IMG/VR virus record: IMGVR_UViG_3300044731_001110
Coordinates: 5,147 to 69,146 of that record
Strand: one strand, 5' to 3'
Length of the DNA stretch: 64,000 nucleotides
From: a virus
The position numbers and the translations under genes were made by a program. Position 1 is the first letter of the stretch. Each line of letters opens with the position of its first letter. The notes under the pieces were generated by a model. It was not told where the DNA came from. It made no database searches and worked only from the letters and a program-made list of their open reading frames with translations. Below, piece after piece: positions 6,816-57,002 of this stretch.

Positions 6816-9800
6816 ATGGCATATGTTATTATAAATGATCCAAACGGTGGGTCAACCTCAACAGTAAGATGTGGTACTTTAAATTCTGCCGCATGTCCAT
6901 ATTCAGTTGTTACTGGTGGATATGCAAATAGTGCTAATTCTAGATTTGGGATTGTAACTGGTGGTTATTACAACACTACAACTGGTTGTATGGCAAATAT
7001 TTCTGGTGGTAGACAAAATAAATCATCTGGCTTTTATTCAACAGTTTCTGGTGGTAGACAAAATACAAATAACTCAATTTTTGGTGTAATTGCCGGTGGT
7101 TACTTAAACACAAATATTGGTGGTAATTCATCTATTGGTGGTGGTGTTTTAAATACAACAACTGGATCTGTTGCAACAATTGCTGGTGGTTGTGATAATT
7201 TAAGTTTAGGTGATTGTGGGTCAATAGTTGGTGGTTATAGAAATTCGGTAGAACAAATTTTTGGTACTGTTGGTGGTGGTTGTGAAAACTCAGCGTCTGG
7301 CGAATATTCATTTGTAGGTGGAGGAGCACAAAATACAGCTTCAAGTTATAACTCAACAATTTCCGGTGGTTTTTGTAACGTTGCAACTAATGCTTGTTCA
7401 ACAATTGCCGGTGGAGCACAAAATAGTGCAATAGGTGATTTTTCATTTATCGGTGGTGGTAGATTCAATACTGCAACAGATACAACTTCAACCATAGCTG
7501 GGGGTAATTCAAATATTGCCGACTGTGAATTTACAATTGTTGGTGGTGGTGAATATAATACAGTAGATTCTGTTTATAGTGCAATTCTTGGTGGATTTTG
7601 TAATACATCAATTGCAAACTTTTCTTCTGTTGTTGGTGGATGTAATAACGCAAATTTAGGTGCCGGATCATTTGTTGGTGGAGGGTGTTCAAATAGTGCA
7701 ATATCAAACATATCGGTAATTGCCGGTGGTGCTAGAAATCAAAACTTTGGGACTTACGCATCAATTCTTGGTGGATTATGTAACAAAACATATTTTGACG
7801 GTACAGTAATAGCTGGAGGTCAATTTAATACTGCAATTGGTTTTAATAGTAATATTGCTGGCGGTTATGGAAATACCGTCTCTGGATATTGTTCTGCAAT
7901 TGTTGGTGGTAATCAAAACTTAGTATTAGGTGACTGCTCAATGATATTTTCAAATAACTCAACTTTGGTTGCTGATAGAAGTGTTATTTTAGGAGGACAA
8001 AATATTTCTGGAACAACAGATGATACTGTTTATGTTCCTTATTTAAATATTCAAAATGTAACAACTGGTACATCGATTTCTAATTTGGGGATTGATTCTT
8101 CTGGTAATGTAATTTTTGGTCAAGATTTAACTGGTTCAACAGCACTTTATGAAGTTGGTTCTGGTACCGACTCAACACAAAGAATTGGTGTTAATTCTGA
8201 TGCTAGTGGTAATTGCTCTGTAGTTTCTGGTGGTTTAAATAATACAAGTAGTGGTTATTATTCTTTTATTGGTGGTGGTGGTGGAAACACTGCGAGTGGT
8301 AATACCTCAACTATTGCCGGTGGTGGACAAAACACAACAATATGTAATTATTCTTTTATTGGTGGTGGATCAGGCAATACTACGGAAGGTGAAAATTCAA
8401 CAATTGGTGGTGGAAATGTAAACTTAGCTATTGGTGACTATTCATTTATTGCTGGTGGAACTGCAAATACGGTTTCTGGTGATTATTCATCAATTATATC
8501 ATCAAATTCAATATTAACAGCAAATTATAGTATTATATTAGGTGGTAATGGACTTACTGGTACGTGTGATAATCACGCATATGTTCCTGGTTTGAACATT
8601 AACTTTTTAAGTAGTGGAACTTCAATCAACACTTTAGGTATTGATGTTAATGGTTATGTTGTTGCTACTGGAACTGGAAATACAGCAAGTGGATGTTATT
8701 CTTTTGTTGGTGGTGGTAAAGATAATACCGCAAGTGGTAATTATTCTTTTGTTGGTGGTGGTAGAGAGAATAAAGCGAGTAGTGATTTTACAACAATTGG
8801 TGGTGGTGAATGTAATAAAGCTGAGTTTACAAACTCAACCGTAAGTGGAGGAAGAAATAATACAGTAAGTAGTGTTTACGCTACAATAGGCGGTGGTCAA
8901 AGTAATTTTATAGATGGACTTCAATCAGTCATAGGTGGTGGTGCTGGTAACACATCAAGTGGTTATTACTCAACCGTAAGTGGTGGTGTTGGTAATGCGT
9001 CAAAAGGAGGTTGTTCAACCGTAAGTGGTGGTGTTGGTAACACAGCAAGTTGTAGATATTCAACCGTAAGTGGTGGTGTTGGTAACATGTCACGTAGCTG
9101 TGGTTCATCAATTGGTGGTGGTAAACAAAACGCTGCTGGTACGAGTGGAACTGTAAGTGCTTACTATGGATTAAGTACAAGTGGGTCAACAACAACAGGT
9201 ATTTTTCCTGGGGTTTCTTCTTCATTTACAGATAGTGTTAATGGTTCTGGTTCTTTGTTTCAATTTGATTTAACAGCAGGTGTTGTTAACAGTATTAATA
9301 TTACAAATGTAGGTCAAGATTATATTAATGGTGATTTTTTATTATTTGACGGAACATTGTTTGGTGGGACTTCTGGAACTGACGATATATCATTCCTTGT
9401 TTTAACATCTGATTATACGTTTGCAACCGTAAGTGGTGGTCAATGTAATACATCAAGTAATTGTTGGTCAACCGTAAGTGGTGGATATCTTAACACATCA
9501 AGTGGATATAATTCAACCGTAAGTGGTGGTCGTCAAAACACGTCAAGTGGTTGTTGGTCATTTATTGGTGGAGGATCGGTTAACACAGCAAGTGGAGACT
9601 ATTCAACTGTAAGTGGTGGTCGTCTTAATACATCAATAGGACCTGCTTCATTAATTGGTGGTGGTATATGTAATACATCAATATGTAATGCTGTAACAAT
9701 TGGTGGTGGTATATGTAATACAGTGTGTGGTGATTGTTCAACAATTAGTGGTGGTATAAACAATACGGTTAGTAGTAGTTACGGATTTATTGGTGGTGGT

Positions 9801-10520
9801 TTATATGGTGTTATAACACAATGTTTTGGAACTGTAAGCGGTGGATATAAAAACACCGTTCTAGGTTCTTGTGGAACTGTAAGTGGTGGTTATAGAAATA
9901 CTGCTTGTTTTTTATCAACAGTAAGTGGTGGTGAGTGTAACACATCAAGTGATTATGGATCAACTATTGGTGGTGGAAGTTTTAACACATCATCAGAATA
10001 TTATGCCTTTGTTGGTGGTGGTCTTTGTAATACGTCATCAAACTATTATTCAACAATTGTTGGTGGTCGTGAAAATACATCAAGTGGTTACAATTCATTT
10101 ATTGGTGGAGGTCTTCAAAATAAATCATTAAATCACTGTACAACTATTAGTGGTGGATTCCAAAATACAACACTTAATATTGGTGCCACAGTTGGTGGTG
10201 GTGGTCGTAATACGGCAGAAGGTATTTGTAGTACTGTAAGTGGTGGCTATCGCAATACTGTAAGCGGTGATACCTCAACAATTGCTGGCGGCCTTTGTAA
10301 TACAATTACAACATCATTCTCAAGTATTCTTGGTTGTAACAACAAAGTAGTTCACACGTCAGCACATATTATTGGTGATAGTATAACATCAACAGCTAAT
10401 TGTATGACTTTTGTAAATCAATTATCTGTTATGAATTTACAAGACGGTTCGGTTGGTTTACCATCTAAAGCTCTATATTATTGTTCAACAGACTCTAATA
10501 GAGTTTATTTTGTACCATAA
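6816..10520 (+). CDS. Tail fibre/adhesin-like repeat protein (1234 aa) with dozens of STVSGGxxNT repeats
   Basis: 15-aa periodic repeats; N-terminus paralogous to 3077 (GGxTSTVRCG). Confidence 0.7.
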   Translation: MAYVIINDPNGGSTSTVRCGTLNSAACPYSVVTGGYANSANSRFGIVTGGYYNTTTGCMANISGGRQNKSSGFYSTVSGGRQNTNNSIFGVIAGGYLNTNIGGNSSIGGGVLNTTTGSVATIAGGCDNLSLGDCGSIVGGYRNSVEQIFGTVGGGCENSASGEYSFVGGGAQNTASSYNSTISGGFCNVATNACSTIAGGAQNSAIGDFSFIGGGRFNTATDTTSTIAGGNSNIADCEFTIVGGGEYNTVDSVYSAILGGFCNTSIANFSSVVGGCNNANLGAGSFVGGGCSNSAISNISVIAGGARNQNFGTYASILGGLCNKTYFDGTVIAGGQFNTAIGFNSNIAGGYGNTVSGYCSAIVGGNQNLVLGDCSMIFSNNSTLVADRSVILGGQNISGTTDDTVYVPYLNIQNVTTGTSISNLGIDSSGNVIFGQDLTGSTALYEVGSGTDSTQRIGVNSDASGNCSVVSGGLNNTSSGYYSFIGGGGGNTASGNTSTIAGGGQNTTICNYSFIGGGSGNTTEGENSTIGGGNVNLAIGDYSFIAGGTANTVSGDYSSIISSNSILTANYSIILGGNGLTGTCDNHAYVPGLNINFLSSGTSINTLGIDVNGYVVATGTGNTASGCYSFVGGGKDNTASGNYSFVGGGRENKASSDFTTIGGGECNKAEFTNSTVSGGRNNTVSSVYATIGGGQSNFIDGLQSVIGGGAGNTSSGYYSTVSGGVGNASKGGCSTVSGGVGNTASCRYSTVSGGVGNMSRSCGSSIGGGKQNAAGTSGTVSAYYGLSTSGSTTTGIFPGVSSSFTDSVNGSGSLFQFDLTAGVVNSINITNVGQDYINGDFLLFDGTLFGGTSGTDDISFLVLTSDYTFATVSGGQCNTSSNCWSTVSGGYLNTSSGYNSTVSGGRQNTSSGCWSFIGGGSVNTASGDYSTVSGGRLNTSIGPASLIGGGICNTSICNAVTIGGGICNTVCGDCSTISGGINNTVSSSYGFIGGGLYGVITQCFGTVSGGYKNTVLGSCGTVSGGYRNTACFLSTVSGGECNTSSDYGSTIGGGSFNTSSEYYAFVGGGLCNTSSNYYSTIVGGRENTSSGYNSFIGGGLQNKSLNHCTTISGGFQNTTLNIGATVGGGGRNTAEGICSTVSGGYRNTVSGDTSTIAGGLCNTITTSFSSILGCNNKVVHTSAHIIGDSITSTANCMTFVNQLSVMNLQDGSVGLPSKALYYCSTDSNRVYFVP
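8970..9085 (+). repeat. Three exact 26-nt copies of TCAACCGTAAGTGGTGGTGTTGGTAA at 45-nt period (coding tandem repeat)
   Basis: Copies start at 8970, 9015 and 9060. Confidence 0.9.
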
Positions 10521-10541
10521 TAAAATAAAATTAATTTTTTT

Positions 10542-10577
10542 AATAACCCCAATCCAAAGTTGGGGTTATTTATTTTT
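10542..10577 (+). terminator. Intrinsic terminator
   Basis: AATAACCCCAA-loop-TTGGGGTTATT followed by a T-rich tract, just after the fibre gene stop. Confidence 0.75.
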
Positions 10578-10602
10578 GTAATTTTTATTTTATATTTTCA
10601 AT

Positions 10603-11346
10603 ATGTTTGTAACTGTATGTAATAAAGATTATCTCATAGGATTTGAGGTAATGTTAAAATCTTTAATTGATAACAACCCAAGAGTTATTAATGATAATTT
10701 ACCTTTTGTAATTATCACAAATGATATAAATCCGGAAGATTTAATCACCTCAAGAAAAATTTATAACAATATACACATAAAAAGATTTGATACTGAAAAA
10801 TATTCTGAAATTGATGAACTAAAGAAAAAACAAATGGCATTTGGTGATTATACTAAATATGAAATTTTTTCTTTGGTTGAGTTTAATAAAATCATATTTT
10901 TAGATTCTGATATTGTTGTATTAGGGAATATTGATTATTTAATTGACTTTGATGGTGATATTGGTGGTGTTAGAGATTTATATATTGATCAGTATAATAC
11001 TGGAGTTTTAGTAATCTCAAAAAAGTACTTATCAGAAAAAATTACAAATGATTTAATACATCTTACAACAATCTATGGTATTACAGAACATCTTGACCAA
11101 GACATAATAAATAATTATTTTTATGATGAAATAACTGAAATACCAGTTTCATATAATTATCTTAAAACATACTCAAAAGAAATTTTTCAAAACACAGGTC
11201 TTCCTAAACATATTAAAATTTTACATTATATTGTAAAAAAACCTTGGCAACAGAAACCATTGGTTTATTTAGAAGAAGGTACAATCTGGCAAGAAAGATA
11301 TTGGTTTGAATATTACTCTAAACTTTTAAAATATAAAAATGATTAA
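10603..11346 (+). CDS. Glycosyltransferase family 8 (glycogenin-like)
   Basis: KYEIF..., IIFLDSD (DxD), YNTGVLV, DQDIIN and ILHY..KPW motifs. Confidence 0.85.
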   Translation: MFVTVCNKDYLIGFEVMLKSLIDNNPRVINDNLPFVIITNDINPEDLITSRKIYNNIHIKRFDTEKYSEIDELKKKQMAFGDYTKYEIFSLVEFNKIIFLDSDIVVLGNIDYLIDFDGDIGGVRDLYIDQYNTGVLVISKKYLSEKITNDLIHLTTIYGITEHLDQDIINNYFYDEITEIPVSYNYLKTYSKEIFQNTGLPKHIKILHYIVKKPWQQKPLVYLEEGTIWQERYWFEYYSKLLKYKND

Positions 11347-12253
11347 AAGACATTATGATAATTCAGAGTTAATGAATTATAAAGAAAGAGAACCTAACTT
11401 AGAAAATTTTGAAGGAAAAGAATTATTATTACATTTTGATTCATTTTGTTTAGGCGATACAATTTGTTTTTCATCATTAATTGATGCTTTTATGGATTAT
11501 CACAAACCAAAATACGTTTGGATAACCACATTTTTTCCGCATTTATTAAAATCTCACAGACCGGATTATAAATTTATAAATGCAAATGAAAGTGGATTTA
11601 TTGAAATTGATAAACTTATTGATGTTGGTTATGATAAAAATAATATAGCCCACACACTTGGTGGAATGTTTTATGCCGCAAAAGACACAATGAGACTACC
11701 ACAGGAAACAAAACCAGGTAAATGTCCCGTAATACCAAAAGTAAGAATTATAAACCCAAAAAAGATTACAATTGGTCCAGAAACAATAAAAGAAATTTCA
11801 CAATGGAATTATGGTGGAACTAGTGGTTGGCAAGAAGTTGTTAATTCATTACATAATGGTGGGTATAATGTTTATAATATTTCTTATGAAAACACAATGA
11901 ATTTACAAAATGTAAAAGGATTTCACGGACACGACGATATAAATGTTGCAATTGACCATATTGTTAGTTCAAGATTTTTTGTTGGGTTATCATCTGGTCT
12001 TTCTTGGGTTGCCTGGGCTTATGGTGTCCCGGTAGTTATGATTTCAAACTTTACAAAAAAACAAAATGAATTTGATTGTTTCAGAGTTACAAACCCATAT
12101 GTTTGTAATGGATGTTTTAATATCTTCCCAAATATAAAAACTAAATGTCCAATATTTCTTGGTACCGATAGGGAAAGTGAATGTCATTTATCAATAACAC
12201 CAGATATGGTTATTGATGAAATAAACAAAGCAATCTTATTTACAAATAATTAA
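11339..12253 (+). CDS. Aah/TibC-like protein O-heptosyltransferase (autotransporter heptosyltransferase family)
   Basis: LGD motif, FVGLSSGLSWVAWAYGVPVVMISNFT, and a four-Cys iron-finger pattern CNGC...CP...ECHLSIT. Confidence 0.75.
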   Translation: MIKRHYDNSELMNYKEREPNLENFEGKELLLHFDSFCLGDTICFSSLIDAFMDYHKPKYVWITTFFPHLLKSHRPDYKFINANESGFIEIDKLIDVGYDKNNIAHTLGGMFYAAKDTMRLPQETKPGKCPVIPKVRIINPKKITIGPETIKEISQWNYGGTSGWQEVVNSLHNGGYNVYNISYENTMNLQNVKGFHGHDDINVAIDHIVSSRFFVGLSSGLSWVAWAYGVPVVMISNFTKKQNEFDCFRVTNPYVCNGCFNIFPNIKTKCPIFLGTDRESECHLSITPDMVIDEINKAILFTNN

Positions 12254-12272
12254 AATTTTATATAATAAAAGT

Positions 12273-13154
12273 ATGGAAAAAAAATATAGTATTTTTCACC
12301 TTGAGGGTGGTTTAGGAAAACACGTACTATCAACCGCTGTTGCAAAATGTATTAAAAACAATCACCCAGATAGAGAATTAATTATTGTTTGTGCATATCC
12401 GGAGGTATTTTTAAATTTAGATTTTGTTGACAGAGTTTATAGAATTGGTATGACACCATATTTTTATGATGATTATATTAAAAATAAAGAAAGTTTAATA
12501 TTTAAACACGAACCATATTTTACATCTGATCACATAAATAAAAAATTACCACTTATAATTAATTGGTGTAAATTACTTGGTCTTGATTATAATAATGAAC
12601 AACCGGTACTATCTTTTAATTTAAGACAACAACAAATTGCAAATGCAAAATGGAAAAGAGAAAAACCGGTAATGGTTATTCAAACAAATGGTGGACCACT
12701 ACAAGAACAACCATACCCATATTCTTGGACAAGAGATATTCCATATGATGTTGCACAAAACATTGTAAATCATTTTTCAAACTACTACCACATAATTCAA
12801 ATTTGTAGGGACCAATCAAATGTTTTACAAAATGTTGAGGCTCATTTTGAACCAATGTCAAATATGGAATTATTTTCATTATTAGCTTATGCACAAAAAA
12901 GGTTATTAATTGATTCTTGTTTACAGCATGCTGCAGCAGCAATGAAATTACCATCAACAGTATTATGGATTGGTACATCACCAGTTGTGTTTGGTTATAA
13001 TATGCACAATAATATTACTGCTGAATTACCAAATACAGTTAAATTACCAGATAGTTATTTATTTGACTATAACTTTAATGGTATGGTTCACGAGTGTCCT
13101 TTATTTGATACAAACATATTCAATATAAATGAAATAATAGAAAGTTTAAAATAA
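12273..13154 (+). CDS. GT9-like (heptosyltransferase fold) glycosyltransferase
   Basis: N-terminal GGLG and C-terminal IDSCLQHAAAAMKLPSTVLWIGT motif typical of GT9. Confidence 0.7.
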   Translation: MEKKYSIFHLEGGLGKHVLSTAVAKCIKNNHPDRELIIVCAYPEVFLNLDFVDRVYRIGMTPYFYDDYIKNKESLIFKHEPYFTSDHINKKLPLIINWCKLLGLDYNNEQPVLSFNLRQQQIANAKWKREKPVMVIQTNGGPLQEQPYPYSWTRDIPYDVAQNIVNHFSNYYHIIQICRDQSNVLQNVEAHFEPMSNMELFSLLAYAQKRLLIDSCLQHAAAAMKLPSTVLWIGTSPVVFGYNMHNNITAELPNTVKLPDSYLFDYNFNGMVHECPLFDTNIFNINEIIESLK

Positions 13155-13159
13155 TAATT

Positions 13160-13978
13160 ATGGTACAAAAAATCTTTTTTCAAAGCTCACTACCAAGAGC
13201 TGGTTCAACATTACTTCAAAACGTAATGGGACAAAACCCAGAATTTTATGTAACACCAACATCTGGGGTATTAGAATTGGTGTATGCCGCTAGAGCAAAT
13301 TACACATCATCACCGGAATTTAAAGCACAAAATCCAAATTTAATGAGAAACGGATTTTTAAATTTTTGTAAAGAAGGTATCTTTGGGTACTACAATGGAA
13401 TAACAGATAAACCTTACGTTTTAGATAAAAGTAGAGGTTGGGGTGTTCATTATGGATTTTTAAATTCTTTTTATCCAGAACCAAAAATTATTTGTATGGT
13501 TAGGGATTTAAGAGGAATTTTTGCATCAATGGAGAAAAACTTTAGAAAGAATCAAGATAAAGATTCTGGTCTTGTTAATCATGCACAAATGCAAGGAACA
13601 ACAACAGAAAAAAGAATTGATATCTGGGCTCAATCACAACCGGTTGGTATGGCAATTGAGAGATTATATCAAATACATAAAGAAGGCATTAATCAAAAGA
13701 TGTTATTTGTAAAATTTGAGGATTTTACATCGAATCCAAAAAAAGAAATGGAAAGAATTTACCAATACTTGGGTCTTCCTTATTTTGAACACGATTTTAA
13801 TAATGTAGAACAAATTACACAAGAGGATGATTCTGTATATGGTATATATGGTGACCACACAATAAAAAGTAAAATAGAACCAATTAAACCAGATTATAAA
13901 GAAGTTTTAGGTGTTAACGCATCTAACTGGGTTAAATCTAATTATCAATGGTTTTATGATCAATTCGGTTATTTTTGA
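13160..13978 (+). CDS. PAPS-dependent sulfotransferase
   Basis: 5'-PSB loop SLPRAGSTLL, LDKSR, 3'-PB IICMVRDLRGIFAS, VKFEDF. Confidence 0.85.
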   Translation: MVQKIFFQSSLPRAGSTLLQNVMGQNPEFYVTPTSGVLELVYAARANYTSSPEFKAQNPNLMRNGFLNFCKEGIFGYYNGITDKPYVLDKSRGWGVHYGFLNSFYPEPKIICMVRDLRGIFASMEKNFRKNQDKDSGLVNHAQMQGTTTEKRIDIWAQSQPVGMAIERLYQIHKEGINQKMLFVKFEDFTSNPKKEMERIYQYLGLPYFEHDFNNVEQITQEDDSVYGIYGDHTIKSKIEPIKPDYKEVLGVNASNWVKSNYQWFYDQFGYF

Positions 13979-13981
13979 TTT

Positions 13982-14437
13982 ATGAAAGAGAAAAAAATAT
14001 ATTGGTTTACCGGTCAACCAGGAGCAGGAAAAACGGTTTTAGCTTTAATGTTAAAAACAATTTTAGAAAAAGAATATGGAAATAATGTTTTTCATATTGA
14101 TGGTGATGAATTAAGAAGACTATTTAACAATCAAAAATACGGTAGAGAAGGTCGTGAAGAAAATATTAAACGAGCTCAAGATATTGCCAAGTTTCTTTTG
14201 GTACAAGGTTATGATGTTGTTGTTAGTCTTGTAGCACCTTATAAAGAATTAAGAGAAAGTTTTAAATATGATTTACAAAATTTATTAGTTGAATTTTATG
14301 TTCATACAACAGATGTTAGGGGTAGAGAACATTTTCATACTGATGAATATGAATCACCAACAGAAAACTTCATTGACATTGATACGACAAATATTGATCC
14401 GCAAGAATCATTAAATCAAATTATTAAATATATATGA
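13982..14437 (+). CDS. cysC: Adenylyl-sulfate (APS) kinase, short form
   Basis: WFTGQPGAGKT P-loop, IDGDELR, GREENIKR, VVVSLVAPY, YESP. Confidence 0.8.
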   Translation: MKEKKIYWFTGQPGAGKTVLALMLKTILEKEYGNNVFHIDGDELRRLFNNQKYGREGREENIKRAQDIAKFLLVQGYDVVVSLVAPYKELRESFKYDLQNLLVEFYVHTTDVRGREHFHTDEYESPTENFIDIDTTNIDPQESLNQIIKYI

Positions 14438-14898
14438 CTTGGTCTGTAAAAAATCACGGTGGATTCCCAACATCAAACACCGATAAAAAATATGCAATAT
14501 TTATAGGTAGATTCCAACCCTATCATTTAGGACATATCGAAATGGTACAACAAAAATTAAACGAAGGTATACCGGCATTAGTTATGGTTAGGGACATTGA
14601 ACCTGACGAGAAAAATCCTTTTACAACAGAACAAACAGTATCAATGATTGAAAAATATCATAAATCAAAAGGTGATGATGTAAAAGTTGTTATTATTCCA
14701 GATATAGAGTCTGTTAATTACGGTCGTGGTGTTGGTTATGAAATAAATGAGTTTACACCACCAAAAGACATTGGTGGTATTTCTGCAACCGGAATTAGAA
14801 ATTGTATTAAAAATAATGATGAATATTGGAAAAAATTGGTTGATGAGTCAATACAAGAAGATGTTGTAAACTATTTAAATTATGAAAACACAAAGTAA
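14434..14898 (+). CDS. HIGH-motif nucleotidyltransferase (NadM/cytidylyltransferase-like)
   Basis: FIGRFQPYHLGH, KNPFT and ISATGIR motifs. Confidence 0.8.
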   Translation: MTWSVKNHGGFPTSNTDKKYAIFIGRFQPYHLGHIEMVQQKLNEGIPALVMVRDIEPDEKNPFTTEQTVSMIEKYHKSKGDDVKVVIIPDIESVNYGRGVGYEINEFTPPKDIGGISATGIRNCIKNNDEYWKKLVDESIQEDVVNYLNYENTK

Positions 14899-19086: not shown

Positions 19087-19758
19087 ATGGCACATAATTA
19101 TTCACCTAAAATAATAACTGAAGGTCTTGTATTATATCTTGATGGTGCAAATACTCGTTCATATCTTGGTAGTGGTACTGCTTGGGTGGATTTATCTCGC
19201 GGTGGAAATAATGGTACATTAACTAATGGCCCTACGTTTAATAGTGGAAATGGTGGAAATATTTTATTTGATGGTACGGATGATTATGTTAATATTGGCA
19301 CTCAAGATTTAGGAATAACAAGAGATTTTACAATAAGTTTCTGGGCAAACATAACAAAAAATGGTGTTGTTGAAATATTTAATAAAGGGTATAATATCCC
19401 GGATTATGGAATTTATTTAGCTAAAGTAACGTCAAATAAATTAACATTACAATCTTACCCATTTTTAAATCTAGATACTATTTCTACTGTATCATCTGGT
19501 ATTACATACTATACAGCGGTTAGAAGTAATACAAATTGTTATTGGTATATAAATGGGGTACAAGACAATAGTACCGTTATTGTTTCTACAAATATAAATC
19601 AATCTAATTTAAAACAATGGAGAATAGGTAGTAATTTTGATGTGGTAAGACCAACTTTTGGTGGTAATATATATTCTTTTAGTGTATATAATAAAGGTTT
19701 AACACAAACTGAAGTTTTACAAAACTATAACACAACTAAATCAAGATTTGGACTATAA
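19087..19758 (+). CDS. LamG/concanavalin A-like domain protein (1 of 3)
   Basis: GLVLYLDG..SY.G.G..W.DLS, FDGTDDYV, YINGV, YNKGL..EVLQNYN. Confidence 0.8.
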   Translation: MAHNYSPKIITEGLVLYLDGANTRSYLGSGTAWVDLSRGGNNGTLTNGPTFNSGNGGNILFDGTDDYVNIGTQDLGITRDFTISFWANITKNGVVEIFNKGYNIPDYGIYLAKVTSNKLTLQSYPFLNLDTISTVSSGITYYTAVRSNTNCYWYINGVQDNSTVIVSTNINQSNLKQWRIGSNFDVVRPTFGGNIYSFSVYNKGLTQTEVLQNYNTTKSRFGL

Positions 19759-20474
19759 TGGCTGGAAGAGTATCATATTACGGAAACATAGTAAAAGATG
19801 GTTTAGTGTTAGATTTAGATGCTGCTAAGTTACAATCATACCCAAGAACCGGAACATTATGGAATGATATAAGTGGATTTCAAAATAACGGCACATTAAC
19901 TAATGGACCGACATTTAATAGTGTAAATGGCGGTAGCATTGTTTTTGATGGGACAAATGATTATGTGGATTGTGGTAACGGATCCTCAACTATGTTAACA
20001 ACTAATGGAACATTATCTGTTTGGTGTAAAATTAACACATATACAGGGACAACACCATATTGGAGTATTGTTGGTAGGGGCGGTGAGGCCGGTTTTGATA
20101 CTAATGGTTATACCATTTGGTATTGGAATGAGTTTGGTAGGATATCGGGAACCATTGCAAATAGATCACCCATTGAAAGATTAAGTATAACAAATAGTTT
20201 TGGTACATCAGGTTCGGTAGGTAATAATATTACTAATTTTACAATGACTTGGGATATGACAAGTCTTAAAATATTTACTAATGGAGTTTTAATTTCAACT
20301 AACTTATATTCTTTTGGTGCTGGTGACACTACATCAACTTCTTTTTTTGTCGGTAAGGGACCTCTTAATCGTTACGCACCCGTCAATGTATATCAAACAT
20401 TGGTCTACAATAGAACATTATCTAACGCCGAAGTTTTACAAAACTATAATGCAACTAAAGGAAGATATTTATAA
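19758..20474 (+). CDS. LamG/concanavalin A-like domain protein (2 of 3)
   Basis: Same conserved termini as 19087; start overlaps the previous stop. Confidence 0.8.
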   Translation: MAGRVSYYGNIVKDGLVLDLDAAKLQSYPRTGTLWNDISGFQNNGTLTNGPTFNSVNGGSIVFDGTNDYVDCGNGSSTMLTTNGTLSVWCKINTYTGTTPYWSIVGRGGEAGFDTNGYTIWYWNEFGRISGTIANRSPIERLSITNSFGTSGSVGNNITNFTMTWDMTSLKIFTNGVLISTNLYSFGAGDTTSTSFFVGKGPLNRYAPVNVYQTLVYNRTLSNAEVLQNYNATKGRYL

Positions 20475-20477
20475 TAT

Positions 20478-20741
20478 ATGGAAACACAAGATTACGAACA
20501 AAGACAATTTATGATATTTAATGTATCAGAATTAACTAACATTGATTTTTCACAAGTATTAGAAACATCAATTGACACAGTTAGAAAAAGTATTGACGAA
20601 ACTAAAACATTTGTAAAATGGGATGGTGATACAATTCCGTCAAGTGTTGATAGTTTAACAACAAAAGAAGGTCCTTATACCTATCAAGAAATTATTGATA
20701 TTTTAAATACACCAGAGTGGACATCAAATGAAATGATATGA
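20478..20741 (+). CDS. Small acidic hypothetical protein within the LamG cluster
   Basis: 87-aa ORF tightly packed between LamG genes; TATTTAT at 20466-20472. Confidence 0.7.
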   Translation: METQDYEQRQFMIFNVSELTNIDFSQVLETSIDTVRKSIDETKTFVKWDGDTIPSSVDSLTTKEGPYTYQEIIDILNTPEWTSNEMI

Positions 20742-21466
20742 GTACGGTACAAGGAGGTTGGCGAGGACCAAACATTACAAAGGATGGTTTATTAATATAT
20801 CTGGACCCAAGTTCACCAAATTCGTACTATCAATTACAAGGAGGAACAACCTTAAAAGATATTTCTGGCGGTGGAAGAAATGGTTCATTAGTTAATACTC
20901 CAACATTTAGTACGACGGTTGGTGGTATGTTTACATTTAATGGTACAAATCAATACATTAATTGTGGTAACTCAGCTGCCTTACAAATTACTCAAGGAAC
21001 AATTAGTGCTTGGGTTAGAGCTACAAGTGGTAATAGTAGTTTTAGGGGTATTGTTGTAAAACAAAATGCTTGGGGACTTTTTTTAAATAGTAATGTATTA
21101 ATTGCTTTTGATTGGGGTAACTATTATGCTAGTGGATTTGATATAAATCAAGGAATTAGAAGTACCGGAATAAATCTTGGAACAAATACTTGGACAAATG
21201 TTACAATGACCTTCTCCCAAACAGTAGGTGTTGCAACACCAGGACCACCAAATAATAATGTGATTATTTATGTAAACGGTTTACCAGTATTAACAACAAC
21301 AACTTTACACCTTGATCACACAGCACCAATCCAACTTGCTTGGGCTAATTTTGCTGGACAATATTTAATAGGTGATATTGCACAAGGATTGGTATATACC
21401 AAAGTTTTAACAGCAACAGAAGTTTTACAAAACTTTAATGCAACTAAATCAAGATTTGGTTTGTAG
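20738..21466 (+). CDS. LamG/concanavalin A-like domain protein (3 of 3)
   Basis: DGLLIYLD, FNGTNQYI, TISAWV, IYVNG, EVLQNFNATKSRFGL. Confidence 0.8.
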   Translation: MSTVQGGWRGPNITKDGLLIYLDPSSPNSYYQLQGGTTLKDISGGGRNGSLVNTPTFSTTVGGMFTFNGTNQYINCGNSAALQITQGTISAWVRATSGNSSFRGIVVKQNAWGLFLNSNVLIAFDWGNYYASGFDINQGIRSTGINLGTNTWTNVTMTFSQTVGVATPGPPNNNVIIYVNGLPVLTTTTLHLDHTAPIQLAWANFAGQYLIGDIAQGLVYTKVLTATEVLQNFNATKSRFGL

Positions 21467-28900: not shown

Positions 28901-30858
28901 GAAATTTAGCATTAGGTGATTATTCTGTAATTGGTGGTGGTAATCAAAACACATCTCAAAATGATTTTGCGGCAGTTTTTGCTGGTTCTGGTAACACTTC
29001 GTCAGGTTATTATAGCATTATTGGTGGTGGAATAAGAAATACAAATACAAACGATCTTGGTTTTCTTGGTGGTGGTTTTTGTAATACATCAAGTGGTTAT
29101 GATGGAGTACTTGGTGGTGGTGGATGTAATACATTAAATAATTTACTTGGTGGTGTAATTGCCGGTGGTAGATTAAATACTGTTGTTGGTATATTCACAA
29201 ACACAATTGGGGGTGGTTTTGGAAATAACGTATCTACATTTGGTGCTGCAACAATTAGCGGTGGATATTTTAATACAACAAATAGTGACTACTCAACAAT
29301 AGGTGGTGGTTCATCAAATACTATAGATTCAATAACAACACAATCTGGCTATTATGTTCTTGGGTCAACAATAGGTGGGGGTTCTTTTAATACAATTTCA
29401 TCATATAGTTCATATTACGATTCTAATGGTAACACAATTGCCGGAGGAAATGGTAATACAACAGTATCATCTTATTATAATGGACAAACAATTGGTGGAG
29501 GTAGTAGGAACATTACATTTAATGATTATACAACAGTTAGTGGTGGTTTTAACAATACATCAAGTGGTTGTTTTTCAACCGTAAGTGGTGGTCGTCAAAA
29601 TACAGCAAGTTGTAATTATTCAAATGTAAGTGGTGGTCGTCAAAATACATCAAGTGGATATCTTTCAACCGTAAGTGGTGGTCGTTTAAACATATCAAGT
29701 GATAATTCTTCAACCGTAAGTGGTGGTTATTGTAACACATCAAGTAATTTGTATTCAACAGTAAGTGGGGGACGTAGAAACACATCAAGTGGTCAATATT
29801 CAACAATAAGTGGTGGGTACCGTAACCTATCATTAAATGATGGATCATTTATAGGTGGTGGTTTTTGTAACACATCAAGTGGTCAATATTCAACAATAAG
29901 TGGTGGTTATTATAACACCGCTAACGGTAATAATTCATTAGTTTCAGGAGGATTTTCAAATATAATACTTACATCAACAATTTCTAATTATATTAATTAC
30001 GGATCGGTAATTGCTGGTGGTAATAATAACTTTATTACTTGTATGGACACAAATAGCGCATATTGTATATATGGTCAAACTATTGGTGGTGGTTCTTTTA
30101 ATACAATATCTAATTATTATGTGGGTGGAACTAATAATATAAACTCTAGCACTATTGCGGGTGGTAATTGTAATTTGATTAATAGTGGTATTGGTGGTAA
30201 TGTTATTAGTGGAGGTATTAATAACACATCAAGTGGTCAATATTCAACCGTAAGTGGTGGTTTTTGTAACACGTCAAGTGGTTCTAATTCAACCGTAAGT
30301 GGTGGTGGTGAAAACACATCAAGTGGTGGTGATTCAACTATTGGAGGTGGTCGTAATAACATAACATTGTGTAATTTCGCAACTGTAAGTGGTGGTTATC
30401 GTAACACATCAAATAGTTGTTGTGGTTCAGTTGGAGGAGGTTCTTGGAACACAATTAGTGGTGCTAGATCCGTTATTGCTGGAGGTGGGGGTTCTTGTGC
30501 CGCATTAGGAAATAGAGCAATATGTGATTTTACCTCAGTACTCGGTGGTTCCGCAAATTTAGCTTGTTGTTCTTATGCTACTGTCGGTGGTGGTTTTTGT
30601 AACACATCAATTGGGACTCGTTCAACCGTAAGTGGTGGATATCGTAACACAGTAATAAATGGTTGTTCTGCAATACTTGGGGGTCAATGTAATACAACCC
30701 AACACGATTGTTCATTTATAGTTGGTAGTGGAATATGTAGTACTGCCGCAAACACAACTCACGTAAACTGTCTACACTTTAGTAATATACCAACAAGTTC
30801 AGCAGGTCTTGCACCAGGAACAGTATGGAATAATGGTGGTGTACTAAACATAGCATAA
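25909..30858 (+). CDS. Tail fibre/adhesin-like repeat protein (1649 aa) with STVSGG repeats and four inserted GSGY-type domains
   Basis: Translated repeats; shares modules with 6816 and 16343. Confidence 0.7.
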   Translation: MATLTGKTIGELTLLTGITNNTLFPVEYNLTTYHIPYSGISNFLTGGTYSNGSITFTNNQGSSFVVSGLYTGSTDFYVTGGTYSNGTITLDRQNGSVSITGLYTGSTDVFVTGGTYDNTTGTLTLEDNNGTSFGVTGFTTGGTGTSLYEVGSGTDSTQRVGVNSAALGNISIIAGGSGNTASGYVSVISGGILNTSLGDCSVIGGGSCNTSGINGIVDSIYNQTFTGNIPSSGFYGSFSPSSTLSGLGTGSTFSFYFSSPTTLSNVYIGNQGSGYVSGDTLTFNGTIFGGAVPQDNVTLQITTTNGGSNIVVGGGCRNTANRNSSTISGGILNKSNANCSTIGGGCCNIITKDSCYSTISGGRRNTGYGCYGVISGGRCNEAGAYGTITGTYNQVYTGGTLNGTFSGGYGPTSTTSVYGDDALFGFVFNSGTLSSVKIVNGGNLYSGNDTLFFNGNIFPGGTTGIDDVTFQVSTSINNYATVAGGCCNTASGEYSTISGGYENTVSGDYSTIGGGSCNTINTNSCYSTIGGGDDNTILQGDVATISGGENNTISGDYSFIGGGYDNIITSSCATISGGFNNTASGYNSFIGGGENNVSGRNNFVDGINSSVYTGGTLNNTYGGISPTSTSSGTGSGALFSFDFVLGVLQTIQIQNGGSGYSNGETLYFNGGLFGGGSSPLDDVWLNINTNNSTHTTISGGRQNTSSNFYSTVSGGRQNTASGNSSTVSGGLENTASCFGSTVSGGVLNTSSNNYSTISGGFRNTSSGYNSTVSGGYRNTSSNYFSTVSGGRNNVSENQFDTIGGGCCNTTILSGGATGAATISGGECNTSGNYYTFNGGGCRNVTLGEFSTIGGGLGNTNYGGFVTSISFNSGSLSGITDNTYTVNPTSLVGYGSNLQFSFDVSGGVVSNIIIINPGVRYEQGEQVLVSGNTIGGSSPANDLTFNLDDVVTSEFSFIGGGGCNTSIGFASSILGGLSNTASGDYSTVGGGGSSSGYNGNLALGDYSVIGGGNQNTSQNDFAAVFAGSGNTSSGYYSIIGGGIRNTNTNDLGFLGGGFCNTSSGYDGVLGGGGCNTLNNLLGGVIAGGRLNTVVGIFTNTIGGGFGNNVSTFGAATISGGYFNTTNSDYSTIGGGSSNTIDSITTQSGYYVLGSTIGGGSFNTISSYSSYYDSNGNTIAGGNGNTTVSSYYNGQTIGGGSRNITFNDYTTVSGGFNNTSSGCFSTVSGGRQNTASCNYSNVSGGRQNTSSGYLSTVSGGRLNISSDNSSTVSGGYCNTSSNLYSTVSGGRRNTSSGQYSTISGGYRNLSLNDGSFIGGGFCNTSSGQYSTISGGYYNTANGNNSLVSGGFSNIILTSTISNYINYGSVIAGGNNNFITCMDTNSAYCIYGQTIGGGSFNTISNYYVGGTNNINSSTIAGGNCNLINSGIGGNVISGGINNTSSGQYSTVSGGFCNTSSGSNSTVSGGGENTSSGGDSTIGGGRNNITLCNFATVSGGYRNTSNSCCGSVGGGSWNTISGARSVIAGGGGSCAALGNRAICDFTSVLGGSANLACCSYATVGGGFCNTSIGTRSTVSGGYRNTVINGCSAILGGQCNTTQHDCSFIVGSGICSTAANTTHVNCLHFSNIPTSSAGLAPGTVWNNGGVLNIA

Positions 30859-51400: not shown

Positions 51401-54400
51401 ATGTCAGATAGTTTTTTATCATTTAACGCCAGTTCTTCATTTAGGAATAATTTAATGGGTAGAAATTTAGCCCCTTATAATGTTCCTGGAGCATATAGCC
51501 CACCATCTGGAAATGTGAATTATGAGGTATCACCATTAAATGATAGTCCTATTGTTGACTCACCAAATGATTTAATTGGTACAACAGTTCAAGCAAACCA
51601 ATTATATCCATTAAACGAATATGGTCCAGATGGTGGTTATAATAATATTATATCAACAAATGGTCCACCATTACCAGTAGACTCAAATCAAGGAGAATAT
51701 GGTCAAGATGATGCCCAATTAGATTTAGTCAACGAATTTTTTATTGACAACGCTTATATTAAAAATATTTTTGGACCAGAGGGTGGTTACAAAGATTTGG
51801 TTATTGTGACTGATATAATATCAAATTCACAATATTTTTTACCTTATTCGGATAATTCAGGATTTCCTTTAATATTCAGCCCATCAACATATACACCCTT
51901 TCAAATCCTAATCGAAGACAACCCAACCGGTTCTAATGGACCGTTATCGCAAGATTCAGAACTAGCACAAAGAGCGGCTCTAGCCTTACGAGAAGAATTC
52001 CAAAGAAGGATTGAATTAGAAACACAACAATTAGTTTCTAGTGTTTTTCAGTTAGACCAATTGGAAGACCCTTTTGAAGCATCATTAGTTGCTACCGGTC
52101 AACAACCTTTAATTGGTAAAAATTGGAAAATTACAGTTCCAGAAAATCCGGTATTAGCGGCAGTTTCATTTGCAAATAGAATTACTGGTACATATTTTCC
52201 AGTATCACCAATACCTGGTGATTATTTTAATGAGACAAACCAAGTATTACCGGGACAAACTGAAGGTGCATTAAATGTTATAAATAATCTAACTGGAGGT
52301 TTATTAGGTCCAATATTAAACAAATATAGAAACCCTTCAGAGGTTTTTGTTGAAAATACTGGTTATGGACAAAAATCAGTATTATTTAAAAGCTTAGACT
52401 ATAACATATATAGACCAAAATACAATAAAGGTTTAGTATTAGGTGTTACAGATTTTATATCAAATTTATTAGGTGCTAATGATGATAAAGGTGGTGGTTA
52501 TTATGTTGGTAGTGATCAAGCTGAACCCTCAACAATTAATACACCGGCAAATGAAATACCTGTTGATAGATTTGGTAAACAACAACCAAGTCCGGTATAT
52601 GGTCCATCTGATTTAGCTAAATTATATGAAGGTAATGTAGACCAAATAAAATTTGGTTTAGCAGCAAGTTCTTATACAAATCAAGGTGGTGTTGCGGGAC
52701 AATTTGTTTGGTTATCACCAAAATATAAAGATAATTTAGGTTTTAAAGTAAAACCAGGCGGCGATCCAGTACAACCACAAGACCAACAATTTGATGCGGT
52801 TAAATTTGAATTTAATCAAAGTACACAATCAACAGATTTTAAATTTAAAGGAGGCTCAATACTTGATAATACACAAAGATTAATAGAATCAGCAGATAAT
52901 GTAACTGGAGCCAAAAGATTAGAGCATGTTGGTAATGCAATTAATCAAGTTTCAAAAGTTTTTAATGATGGTTATAAAGAATTAACAAAAGGTTCAAGAG
53001 TTATTGCGTACTATGATAGTGTTACAAATTCACAAACAATGTCAATTGATGGAACTGAAGTTGGTAGTGAATATTGTAGGATTTTTCAAAAAGATACACC
53101 GTATTTAACATATGCCGATTTACAAAAAACAGATGGTATCACAACTTCTGGTCGAAAATTTTCATATTCAGTTTTTGATAATACATATAATTTAAATATT
53201 GCTCCTTTAAGAAATCCTGGATCAACAAATATTATTGACGGAAAAGTTAAAAAATATATGTTTTCTTTAGAAAACTTAGCTTGGAGAACATCTAGCGAAC
53301 CTGGATTTACATACGATGATTTACCAATCTGTGAAAGAGGACCAAATGGTGGTAGAATTATGTGGTTTCCTCCATATAATTTAACATTTAGTGATTCATC
53401 AACCGCTAGTTGGAACTCAACATCATTTTTAGGTAGACCAGAACCAATATATACATACAAGGATACAAAAAGATCCGGATCAATTGGTTGGACAATTGTT
53501 GTTGATTCACCAGCATCTATGAACACAATTGTTGAAAAACAATTGGCAAATATGTCACCAGAACAAGTGGACTCAATTATGGATTCATTTTTTGCTGGTT
53601 GTGTTAAATACGACTTATATGATTTAGCGGTTAAATTTAATCAAATCCCAATTAATGAGTTATATACTTATCAAGAAATTTTACAAAACCCAAGATTAAC
53701 TGACGAAGAAAAATTTGGTGTTTTAAAAGAAATCCCAATTAATGAAGGAACTACAACTAATGGTGCAAATACTGTACAAGAAGGTGGTGGTGATGGTAAA
53801 CAAGGTGTTGATAACACAAATAGTAATACAACAAATGGTAGTAATACCACAATATCTAGTGATATTGATATTGAATGTCTAAAAGAAGATATACAAGGGT
53901 ATGTTGGTTATGCTTTTTACTTTCATAACGACTGTCCAGAATGTGTTGGTAGTACATCTGTAACATCTAGTCAACCATATAGTTATTGGTATGATTCATA
54001 TATTAACACATACAAACCATTATATGCTGATAAAGCACCAGCAAATGTAACAACTGGACTTAATGGTGAAAGTTTTAGTAGTAATGGTATACCACAATTT
54101 TTTTCTAGTGTTATTGAAGGAAACTTTAGTGCAATTAAAAGTGATTTCTTACCTGTCAAATTAAAACAAGTTTTAGTTGATTTACAAGGTAAAGTTACTA
54201 TAGAATTAAGAGGTTCAGCTTCAGCACCAGCATCAGAGGATTATAACGTTAACCTATCAAAAAGAAGAAATAACTCTGTTGAACAATGGTTATTAAAACA
54301 AACTGTTGGTGACAAAACATTGGCTGTTTGGAAAACAGAAGGAAAATTTAAGATAACATATGTATCAAGTGGTGAGGGTGCTGTTTTACCTAAAAATTCT

Positions 54401-56678: not shown

Positions 56679-57002
56679 ATGGCATTACAATATTATAATA
56701 GATATAGTATGTTTTTGGATAATGGAAAACAAAGAGTTGTTCCTTATGTTACATTACCTATAAAACCAACAGATAAAAAATATATTTATAAAATTGGTCA
56801 ATCAAGACTAGATAAAATATCACAACAATATTATGGTTCGCCATTTTTTGGTTGGTTAATACAACAAGCAAATCCTGGTTATACGGGACTTGAAGCAAAC
56901 ATACCTGATGGTGCTATATTGACAATTCCATTTCCATTACTAACTTCATTACAAGACTATAAATCAACATTAGATAATCATTTCCTATACTATGGTAAAT
57001 AA
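56679..57002 (+). CDS. LysM-like baseplate wedge/tail X protein (gp53-like)
   Basis: RLDKISQQYYG...WLI..ANP...IPDGAILTIP. Confidence 0.7.
   Translation: MALQYYNRYSMFLDNGKQRVVPYVTLPIKPTDKKYIYKIGQSRLDKISQQYYGSPFFGWLIQQANPGYTGLEANIPDGAILTIPFPLLTSLQDYKSTLDNHFLYYGK

Follow-up and report, generated by a model that had tools for sequence, protein, structure and literature searches.

A predicted minimal TibC/Aah-type iron-finger glycosyltransferase encoded beside UspA1-like beta-roll fibres in a contractile-tailed phage

We analysed a stretch of 64,000 nucleotides (nt) of viral DNA (hereafter the window), corresponding to bases 5147-69146 of the 69-kb IMG/VR virus record IMGVR_UViG_3300044731_001110 (CheckV completeness 23%). 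We focused on the open reading frame (ORF) at 11339, whose product is here called P0001, and on the long repetitive fibre genes around it, F0, F1 and F2 (Table 1). An original prediction had read this ORF as an Aah/TibC-type heptosyltransferase, and F1 and F2 as its substrates. The window proteins included a tail sheath, tube, baseplate hub, DNA polymerase and helicase according to a PHROG scan, and thus the window belongs to a large uncultured contractile-tailed phage; a related record of 197 kb was 96% complete according to CheckV. The G+C content of the window was about 30%, no tRNAs were found in it, and the megablast search of positions 10500-14000 against phage records gave zero matches. 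The closest cultured phage, based on the sheath protein, was Microcystis phage Mel-JY01 (31% identity). The genes follow one another closely on the same strand: a GT8 gene overlaps the start of the P0001 gene by 8 nt, and the intergenic gaps downstream of the latter are, in order, 19, 5 and 3 nt.

The translation of ORF 11339 contained both the motif FVGLSSGLSWVAWAYGVPVVMISNFT and the cysteine cluster C256-x2-C259-x10-C270-x11-C282 that had been described for it. P0001 matched the NCBIfam family TIGR04414 (Aah/TibC) with an E value of 5.4e-35 and 121 bits, over profile positions 79-373 of 374, and the Pfam GT9 match was 18 bits, below the cut-off. TibC was the sole sequence match of P0001 in the PDB (E 5.6e-17), with all four cysteines aligned. 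The AlphaFold2 (AF2) model, built from an alignment of 48 sequences, reached a predicted local distance difference test score (pLDDT) of 94.8, and its best Foldseek matches were all TibC chains (template modelling score, TM, 0.79-0.80; E 1.5e-20), followed by WaaF (0.60) and WaaC (0.53). The structural comparison with TibC had been named beforehand as a check; since TibC is far ahead of WaaF and WaaC in fold, the best match is not an ordinary lipopolysaccharide (LPS) GT9 enzyme without the iron finger.

We also mapped the TibC residues named in PMC4358343 onto P0001 through alignments. The catalytic base of TibC (D110) is kept as D40, which lies in the motif CLGDT (aligned with the LGD of TibC through P0241) and whose conservation is 90% or higher in both alignments, of 21 and 48 sequences. 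The Trp that contacts the heptose O4 (W305) is kept as W223, which all of the 21 sequences share and which is conserved to 90% or more in the 48, while the four cysteines of the iron finger (C339/342/358/370 in TibC and C256/259/270/282 in P0001) are invariant in both. The stereoselectivity site, P300 in TibC and Ser in Aah, is Aah-like in P0001 (S218), which also carries the BAHT-like sugar-pocket motif GLSSGLSW. The Aah/TibC-type assignment therefore held, with TibC as the best match in sequence and fold and with the iron-finger cysteines and the catalytic Asp retained.

The fibre repeats reported at 6816 and 25909 also proved real: both frames are open, and the exact motif S[TS][VI]SGG occurred 12 times in F1 and 18 times in F2, compared with means of 0.03 and 0.06 in 1000 shuffles per fibre. 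The looser motif [ST][VI][SGA]GG was found 30 and 42 times (shuffle means 0.64 and 0.85). Repeat units were counted with the anchor [VILFTA]xGG..N, for which the commonest spacing was 15 residues, and the counts in Table 1 include F0, a fibre that the original prediction had not covered. The F1 unit reads G-x-[YF]-S-T-[IV]-[SGA]-G-G-x-x-N-T-[SA]-S, and the repeat profile, with positions numbered, G1 x2 [YF]3 S4 T5 [IV]6 [S/G/A]7 G8 G9 x10 x11 N12 T13 [S/A/V/I]14 S15. The fibres consist of 24-27% Ser and Thr, and of just 6-8% charged residues.

In the PDB, F1 matched the UspA1 head 3PR7 by sequence (E 1.5e-19). The AF2 model of the last 300 amino acids (aa) of F1 (pLDDT 80.1) had strands at positions 3-7 and 11-14, two in each turn. 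Foldseek of this model against the PDB gave nothing at E <= 0.001, and VIA-align was therefore used: UspA1 was the best match (Z 20.4, 33% identity), followed by the BpaC head (Z 19.4), while TibA (4q1q) had a Z of 15.0, level with unrelated tailspikes. F2 had a weak match to the grass antifreeze beta-roll PF21300 (27.5 bits, below the cut-off). In the left-handed beta-roll of UspA1/YadA type described in PMC9543794, with layers of 14-15 residues, G8 is invariant, UspA1 has the additional G9 and T5, and the trimer core is made up of positions 5 and 7. The fibre repeat is thus, as judged from the profile and the model, a 15-residue UspA1-type left-handed beta-roll, of the kind that forms the heads of trimeric autotransporters. 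None of the Pfam families for the neck, coiled-coil stalk or membrane anchor was detected on the fibres, whose C-termini are phage fibre modules.

One C-terminal module (..HDCSFIVG..I.S...NTTHVNCL...N[IL]P.SS.GL..G.V...) was common to fibres of different length (window 10300-10517 and 30650-30855, and loci L026, L028, L031 and L032); other fibres have unrelated domains in its place, which suggests that receptor-binding tips are exchanged modularly. The beta-roll inserts of about 70-100 residues, four in F2 and one in F1 (around aa 780-870), had a common pattern (..LFxFxF..G.L..V.I.N.G.GY..GD.L.F.G..FGG....DDV.F..) and no family match, and are probably small globular domains that project outward. 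Cysteines in F1, F2 and related fibres (L002-L174) clustered at the variable positions 1-3, 10 and 11, with as much as 20% at the last of these, and were nearly absent from positions 4-9, 12 and 14. They made up 1.8-3.4% of the fibres (group medians), a content that was similar in loci with or without the transferases, compared with 0.7-1.3% of the remaining long ORFs in these loci. Cysteines stacked on adjacent turns could form disulfide ladders.

The three genes that follow F1 are kept together in relatives: 14 out of 14 close viral loci retained a trio of ORFs of 247, ~303 and ~294 aa at the spacing of the GT8, TibC-like and GT9-like genes of the window, as identified by ORF size and order. 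Among loci with the short form of the TibC-like gene, 18 out of 23 had a fibre of UspA1 type, usually 0.8-1.5 kb upstream. The five exceptions were L008, which is cut 1.6 kb upstream, L029, and L013-L015. Longer forms of the enzyme, mostly multi-domain, had a giant fibre (up to 72 units) in 9 out of 66 loci, at a distance of 2-6 kb. In the 75 loci that were found through the fibre C-terminal motif, the gene order was rearranged at times and the linkage was retained, and the TibC-like/GT8 pair, where present, sits between the fibre and the GT9-like gene.

The neighbouring genes encode further putative sugar- and sulfate-modifying enzymes. The best PDB matches of the GT8 protein were glycogenin-2, the Skp1 alpha-galactosyltransferase 6mw5 and the GT8 entry 5gvv. 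P0005, the GT9-like protein, is a distant relative of P0001 (hhalign between the two profiles 96.1%, E 3.3e-9); its family has an invariant GGLGK in place of the GT9 LGD, lacks the iron finger, and counts 4012 homologues, compared with 366 for the TibC-like protein. The invariant residues of this family were G12, G13, G15, K16, R154, D155, D214, S215 and H219. The family lacks an Asp at the position that is usually catalytic in GT9 enzymes, and in the ESM Atlas it forms a virus-only cluster. Its profile matched no solved structure, and tblastn of P0005 recovered one uncultured marine virus record. The sulfotransferase had only a weak best match in the PDB (protein-tyrosine sulfotransferase 1, E 0.003). 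It forms a tight array with the adenylyl-sulfate (APS) kinase and HxGH adenylyltransferase genes (13160-14898), which recurs beside fibres; the small adenylyltransferase might replace ATP sulfurylase, and the phage would then make its own sulfate donor. The better-scoring neighbours, GT8 and the PF11397 protein, resemble protein-acting transferases, which, as far as resemblance goes, favours proteins over lipids as acceptors.

Table 1. Position and main characteristics of the fibre, transferase and associated genes in the window.
Feature	Coordinates	Strand	Characteristics
Fibre F0, 1223 aa	3077..6748	+	MSFVIISD..GG..STVRC N-terminal module; 23 UspA1-type 15-residue beta-roll units; ~33-residue 'YVTGGTY...' repeat blocks
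Fibre F1, 1234 aa	6816..10520	+	56 15-residue units; one ~100-residue non-repeat insert; non-repeat C-terminal domain
GT8 retaining glycosyltransferase, 247 aa	10603..11346	+	Pfam PF01501, E 1.2e-25
TibC/Aah-like iron-finger glycosyltransferase, predicted minimal form, 304 aa (P0001)	11339..12253	+	D40, S218, W223, C256/C259/C270/C282
GT9-like/TibC-related GT-B protein without iron finger, 293 aa (P0005)	12273..13154	+	Pfam GT9 18.6 bits, below cut-off
Sulfotransferase, 272 aa	13160..13978	+	PF13469, E 1.9e-20
APS kinase-like protein, 151 aa	13982..14437	+	PF01583, E 1.4e-18; no NCBIfam adenylyl-sulfate kinase model reached its cut-off
HxGH nucleotidyl(adenylyl)transferase, 154 aa (P0275)	14434..14898	+	PF01467; NMN adenylyltransferase PDB matches, E 1.9e-7
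Additional fibre-like protein, 913 aa	16343..19084	+	Ser+Thr 28%; repeats 'YVTGGTYSNG..TFTNNSGGTFNVTG'; no family match
Three LamG/concanavalin-like virion-type proteins	19087-19758, 19758-20474, 20738-21466	+	PF13385; PHROG 8510 'virion structural protein'; plus one small ORF (block 19087..21466)
GlcNAc-transferase family protein, 414 aa	21715..22959	+	PF11397, E 2.1e-70; PHROG 24687 glycosyltransferase, E 6.7e-162
HtrL/YibB-family protein, 554 aa	22956..24620	+	PF09612, E 7.3e-21
Fibre F2, 1649 aa	25909..30858	+	61 15-residue units; four ~70-100-residue globular inserts

P0001, encoded in a sugar and sulfate gene cluster among genes for fibres that resemble adhesin heads, probably decorates the phage's own fibres. 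The best reading of the locus, to which we give an even chance, is therefore a fibre glycosylation and sulfation island within the fibre module, comprising five glycosyltransferase-type genes, the sulfotransferase, the APS kinase and the adenylyltransferase. P0001 would move a sugar from a nucleotide sugar made by the host, ADP-heptose being one candidate, onto hydroxyl residues of the fibres, in the cytoplasm of the infected cell and before or during fibre assembly. The overlapping GT8 partner would then extend this sugar, and the GT9-like enzyme and the sulfation genes would add more general decoration. There is a precedent in TibC, whose substrate according to PMC4358343 is a folded beta-solenoid that is encoded by the adjacent gene and modified in the cytoplasm. 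What the analysis shows is the family and fold of the enzyme, its conserved residues, the repeat type and the gene linkage, whereas the fibres as acceptor, the modified residue, the sugar and the addition of sulfate are inferred. More specifically, and more tentatively, a widespread group of large aquatic phages may coat their beta-roll fibres with sulfated O-glycans, whose chains would be started on fibre Ser by a TibC relative lacking barrel and ring.

Several observations weigh against the island reading, and the first of them concern the enzyme itself. P0001 is below the curated cut-off of TIGR04414 (121 vs 200 bits), for which 15 out of 20 scanned database representatives scored 255-330 bits. 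The two beta-phosphate contacts of TibC, T226 and K230, are changed to I150 and S154 (a Lys three residues upstream of the latter, K151, is also present in four of the five aligned representatives with the highest similarity), and the adenine contact R286 is changed to A204, this Arg being present in about half of the representatives above the cut-off. The N-terminal beta-barrel (TibC residues 1-97) is absent, as P0001 starts at profile position 79 and has no PF21129 match, and the thumb hairpin (TibC F265/V266) is deleted in the alignment, as it is in several representatives above the cut-off. In PMC4358343, deletion of the beta-barrel abolishes TibC activity, and the thumb is reported to build the TibC dodecamer; TibC depends on barrel and thumb for its activity and its ring. 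Nearly all of the best 120 of the 366 homologues of P0001 were ~300 aa long (55-100% identity), thus the short form is not a truncation, and P0001, without barrel and thumb, is a minimal variant. We therefore place ORF 11339, from its alignments and its predicted fold, in the TibC/Aah (BAHT) fold family as a minimal member and not as a TibC equivalog; with barrel and thumb missing, it probably forms no dodecamer ring.

The lack of parts needed for TibC activity, together with the three changed donor-contact columns, would also fit a non-catalytic factor that binds the fibres for assembly or targeting. BimC of Burkholderia offers the model: it pairs with the trimeric autotransporter BimA and is reported in PMC11499645 to act by binding through its iron finger. 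The catalytic Asp, GLSSGLSW and W223 are, however, conserved across the 366-protein family, as is expected for an enzyme, and we consider such a binding role very unlikely.

The second group of opposing points concerns the acceptor. The original prediction had likened the SGG repeats to the acceptor motif of AIDA-I and TibA. The AIDA-type right-handed beta-helix has a repeat of ~19 residues, and the phage fibres, with their period of 15 and UspA1-type beta-roll, do not bear out the likeness; neither the sequence nor the model supports it. The modified sites of TibA given in PMC4358343 are S313 in NSGGAV and S322 in NTSAAV, and TibC is described there as modifying only Ser. In the phage unit, the Ser of SGG falls at position 7, which would face the trimer core by register with the homologous solved heads. 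This is in part the outcome named in advance as contrary to the prediction, namely repeat serines turned to the core. Position 7 in the window was S in 41%, G in 38% and A in 14% of the units, and across 122 related fibres it was G in 42-61% and S in 12-27%, in addition to V, A and I; this mix of small and core-type residues is the pattern of a packed position. Two further positions share this face, 3 with Y/F and 5 with T/F/V.

The residues on the solvent side would, by this register, be x2, x10/11, T13 and S15, and S15 followed by G1 would form an exposed Ser-Gly turn in every repeat. The frequency of Ser at position 7 was 26% of 878 units in the loci with the short enzyme and 27% of 968 units in the loci with only the GT9-like gene, the latter being contig fragments that could carry enzyme genes elsewhere. 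Ser at position 15 was less frequent in the short-enzyme loci (32% vs 49%), and Thr at position 13 more frequent (55% vs 38%). Given that TibC modifies only Ser and that neither Ser 7 nor Ser 15 tracks the enzyme, no position of the repeat supports a specific acceptor.

The third group concerns the linkage. Out of the 75 fibre-anchored loci, 39 had the GT9-like gene (window 12273), 36 the sulfotransferase, 30 the APS kinase and 29 the adenylyltransferase, whereas the TibC-like gene was found in eight and the GT8 gene in seven. The TibC-like/GT8 pair is thus an add-on, and the GT9-like, sulfotransferase and APS kinase genes are far more widespread beside such fibres. Of the proposed enzyme-adhesin pair, the adjacency to the fibres is real and kept in close phage relatives, but the enzyme is not the main partner of the fibre. 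In addition, many loci are near-identical or kin by descent, so that all these counts measure conservation and not independent events. In L013-L015, the trio adjoins a different fibre, with an 18-residue NIAxG repeat, and Pro/Thr-rich proteins (e.g. L013:12732-13517 and L013:4510-6747 for these neighbours). UspA1-type fibres were seen in the record of only one of the three loci, ~74 kb from the trio. The Pro/Thr-rich proteins carry long Pro/Thr runs (TPTPTPT...), a classic linker of O-glycosylation type.

These last results lend some weight to a variant in which the enzymes decorate virion proteins, but P0001 acts on Ser/Thr-rich linkers or inserts, on ORF 16343, on the LamG proteins or on a sugar already placed, and not on the repeat Ser. 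The core-like behaviour of Ser 7, the Ser/Thr-rich non-repeat stretches of the fibres, the position of the trio in L013-L015 and the add-on status of P0001 all agree with it. It is harder to reconcile with the exposed Ser-Gly turn predicted in each repeat, and the only activity that PMC4358343 presents for TibC-family enzymes is direct transfer to Ser of beta-solenoid proteins; on balance, we regard this variant as rather unlikely.

The donor and the wider family provide the remaining opposing points. No gmhA was found in five phage records (one 96% complete, the others fragments), and any heptose donor must therefore come from the host; for rfaE domain I, a single PfkB kinase match was obtained in one of the five records, with 107 bits against a cut-off of 345. 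Host ADP-heptose is a possible donor. The wider TibC-like family comprised 974 representatives at E <= 0.001, and most of the viral TibC-like domains analysed were C-terminal domains of proteins of 600-1450 aa. Such multi-domain database representatives bear GT4, GT2 and FkbM methyltransferase domains, fusions that are frequent in the wider family and whose architecture is typical of polysaccharide synthesis too.

These fusions, and the Pfam names GT9 and GT8, which are classic LPS-core families, could instead suggest that the GT8, TibC-like and GT9-like enzymes remodel host envelope glycans (LPS core, capsule or glycans of surface proteins), for instance against superinfection or sticking to debris, with the fibres as mere neighbours; a paper on huge phages (PMC10747093) interprets the heptosyltransferase gene of a phage as an auxiliary gene for LPS. 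On the other side, the fold of P0001 is much closer to TibC than to WaaC or WaaF, the transferase genes are closely packed on a single strand within the fibre module, the fibre linkage persists across rearranged loci, and the family scans of the window ORFs revealed no gene for a lipid carrier or for export. We consider envelope remodelling unlikely. Sugar hypermodification of the phage DNA was also considered, given that phage glycosyltransferases acting on DNA bases are known (bioRxiv 10.1101/2023.12.21.572611), but the PHROG and Pfam scans found no base-hydroxymethylating enzyme beside the transferases, the setting is a fibre module and the fold family is protein-directed, which makes this highly improbable.

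Compared with TibC/Aah (TIGR04414; PDB 4RAP/4RB4), P0001 has the GT-B core, iron finger, catalytic Asp, heptose-contacting Trp and Aah-type Ser in common, and its gene likewise lies beside that of a Ser-rich beta-solenoid surface protein. It differs in its length (304 vs ~400 aa), in the loss of barrel and thumb, in a loop between the second and third cysteines that is five residues shorter, in the changed T226/K230/R286 columns and in its score below the family cut-off, as well as in its viral origin, its GT8 partner and a neighbour predicted to be a left-handed 15-residue beta-roll fibre instead of a 19-residue right-handed autotransporter helix. The phage fibres resemble the UspA1/YadA heads (PDB 3PR7, 7O23 and 1P9H) in the 15-residue unit, G8, G9, T5 and the Asn ladder; unlike these heads, they have phage N- and C-terminal fibre modules in place of the neck, coiled-coil stalk and membrane anchor, and Thr, Ser and Cys at solvent positions that are charged in UspA1. 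BimC is likewise a BAHT-family iron-finger protein encoded beside a trimeric, not monomeric, autotransporter, but it is full length and is reported in PMC11499645 to bind the membrane domain of BimA, not to glycosylate the head.

In mycobacteriophage virions and in giant-virus fibrils, structural proteins are likewise decorated by transferases that the virus itself encodes, with other enzyme families and other acceptors, and to our knowledge no BAHT-type enzyme or sulfation genes take part there. Our literature search, which was aimed at phages and did not extend to subscription journals, found no paper pairing a TibC/Aah-type enzyme with phage fibres, and nothing relevant on phage fibre glycosylation. 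If P0001 does start chains on fibre Ser, no BAHT enzyme before it would have had a structural protein of a virus as its substrate, and the glycan would be the first sulfated one on a phage virion; P0001 would also show the smallest working core of TibC type, which lacks barrel and thumb and probably the ring as well. Tail fibres set which hosts a phage infects, and with a coat of sugar and sulfate, host range, protease resistance and stickiness to debris would hinge on chemistry that is invisible in the fibre sequence. With at least 579 TibC-like stretches in IMG/VR, the question reaches many phages.

Automatic JGI labels already call homologues of P0001 "autotransporter strand-loop-strand O-heptosyltransferase". 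Searching phage records with P0001 by tblastn gave only four matches, three in metagenomic records (484-735 kb class) and one in Mel-JY01, on which no paper was found in the literature search. In this phage (L024, PP395634.1 4750-8430), a 1226-aa protein labelled 'methyltransferase FkbM' has a TibC-like C-terminus, 30% identical to P0001, and adjoins a 'structural protein'. In the window, two giant ORFs 3' of the baseplate hub (51401-56677, 1758 aa, and 56992-63504, 2170 aa) had no PHROG match and zero 15-residue units. Finally, directly 5' of the fibre genes, positions 82-2997 encode a 971-aa protein with a papain-like C-terminal domain (Peptidase C1; PHROG 16701).

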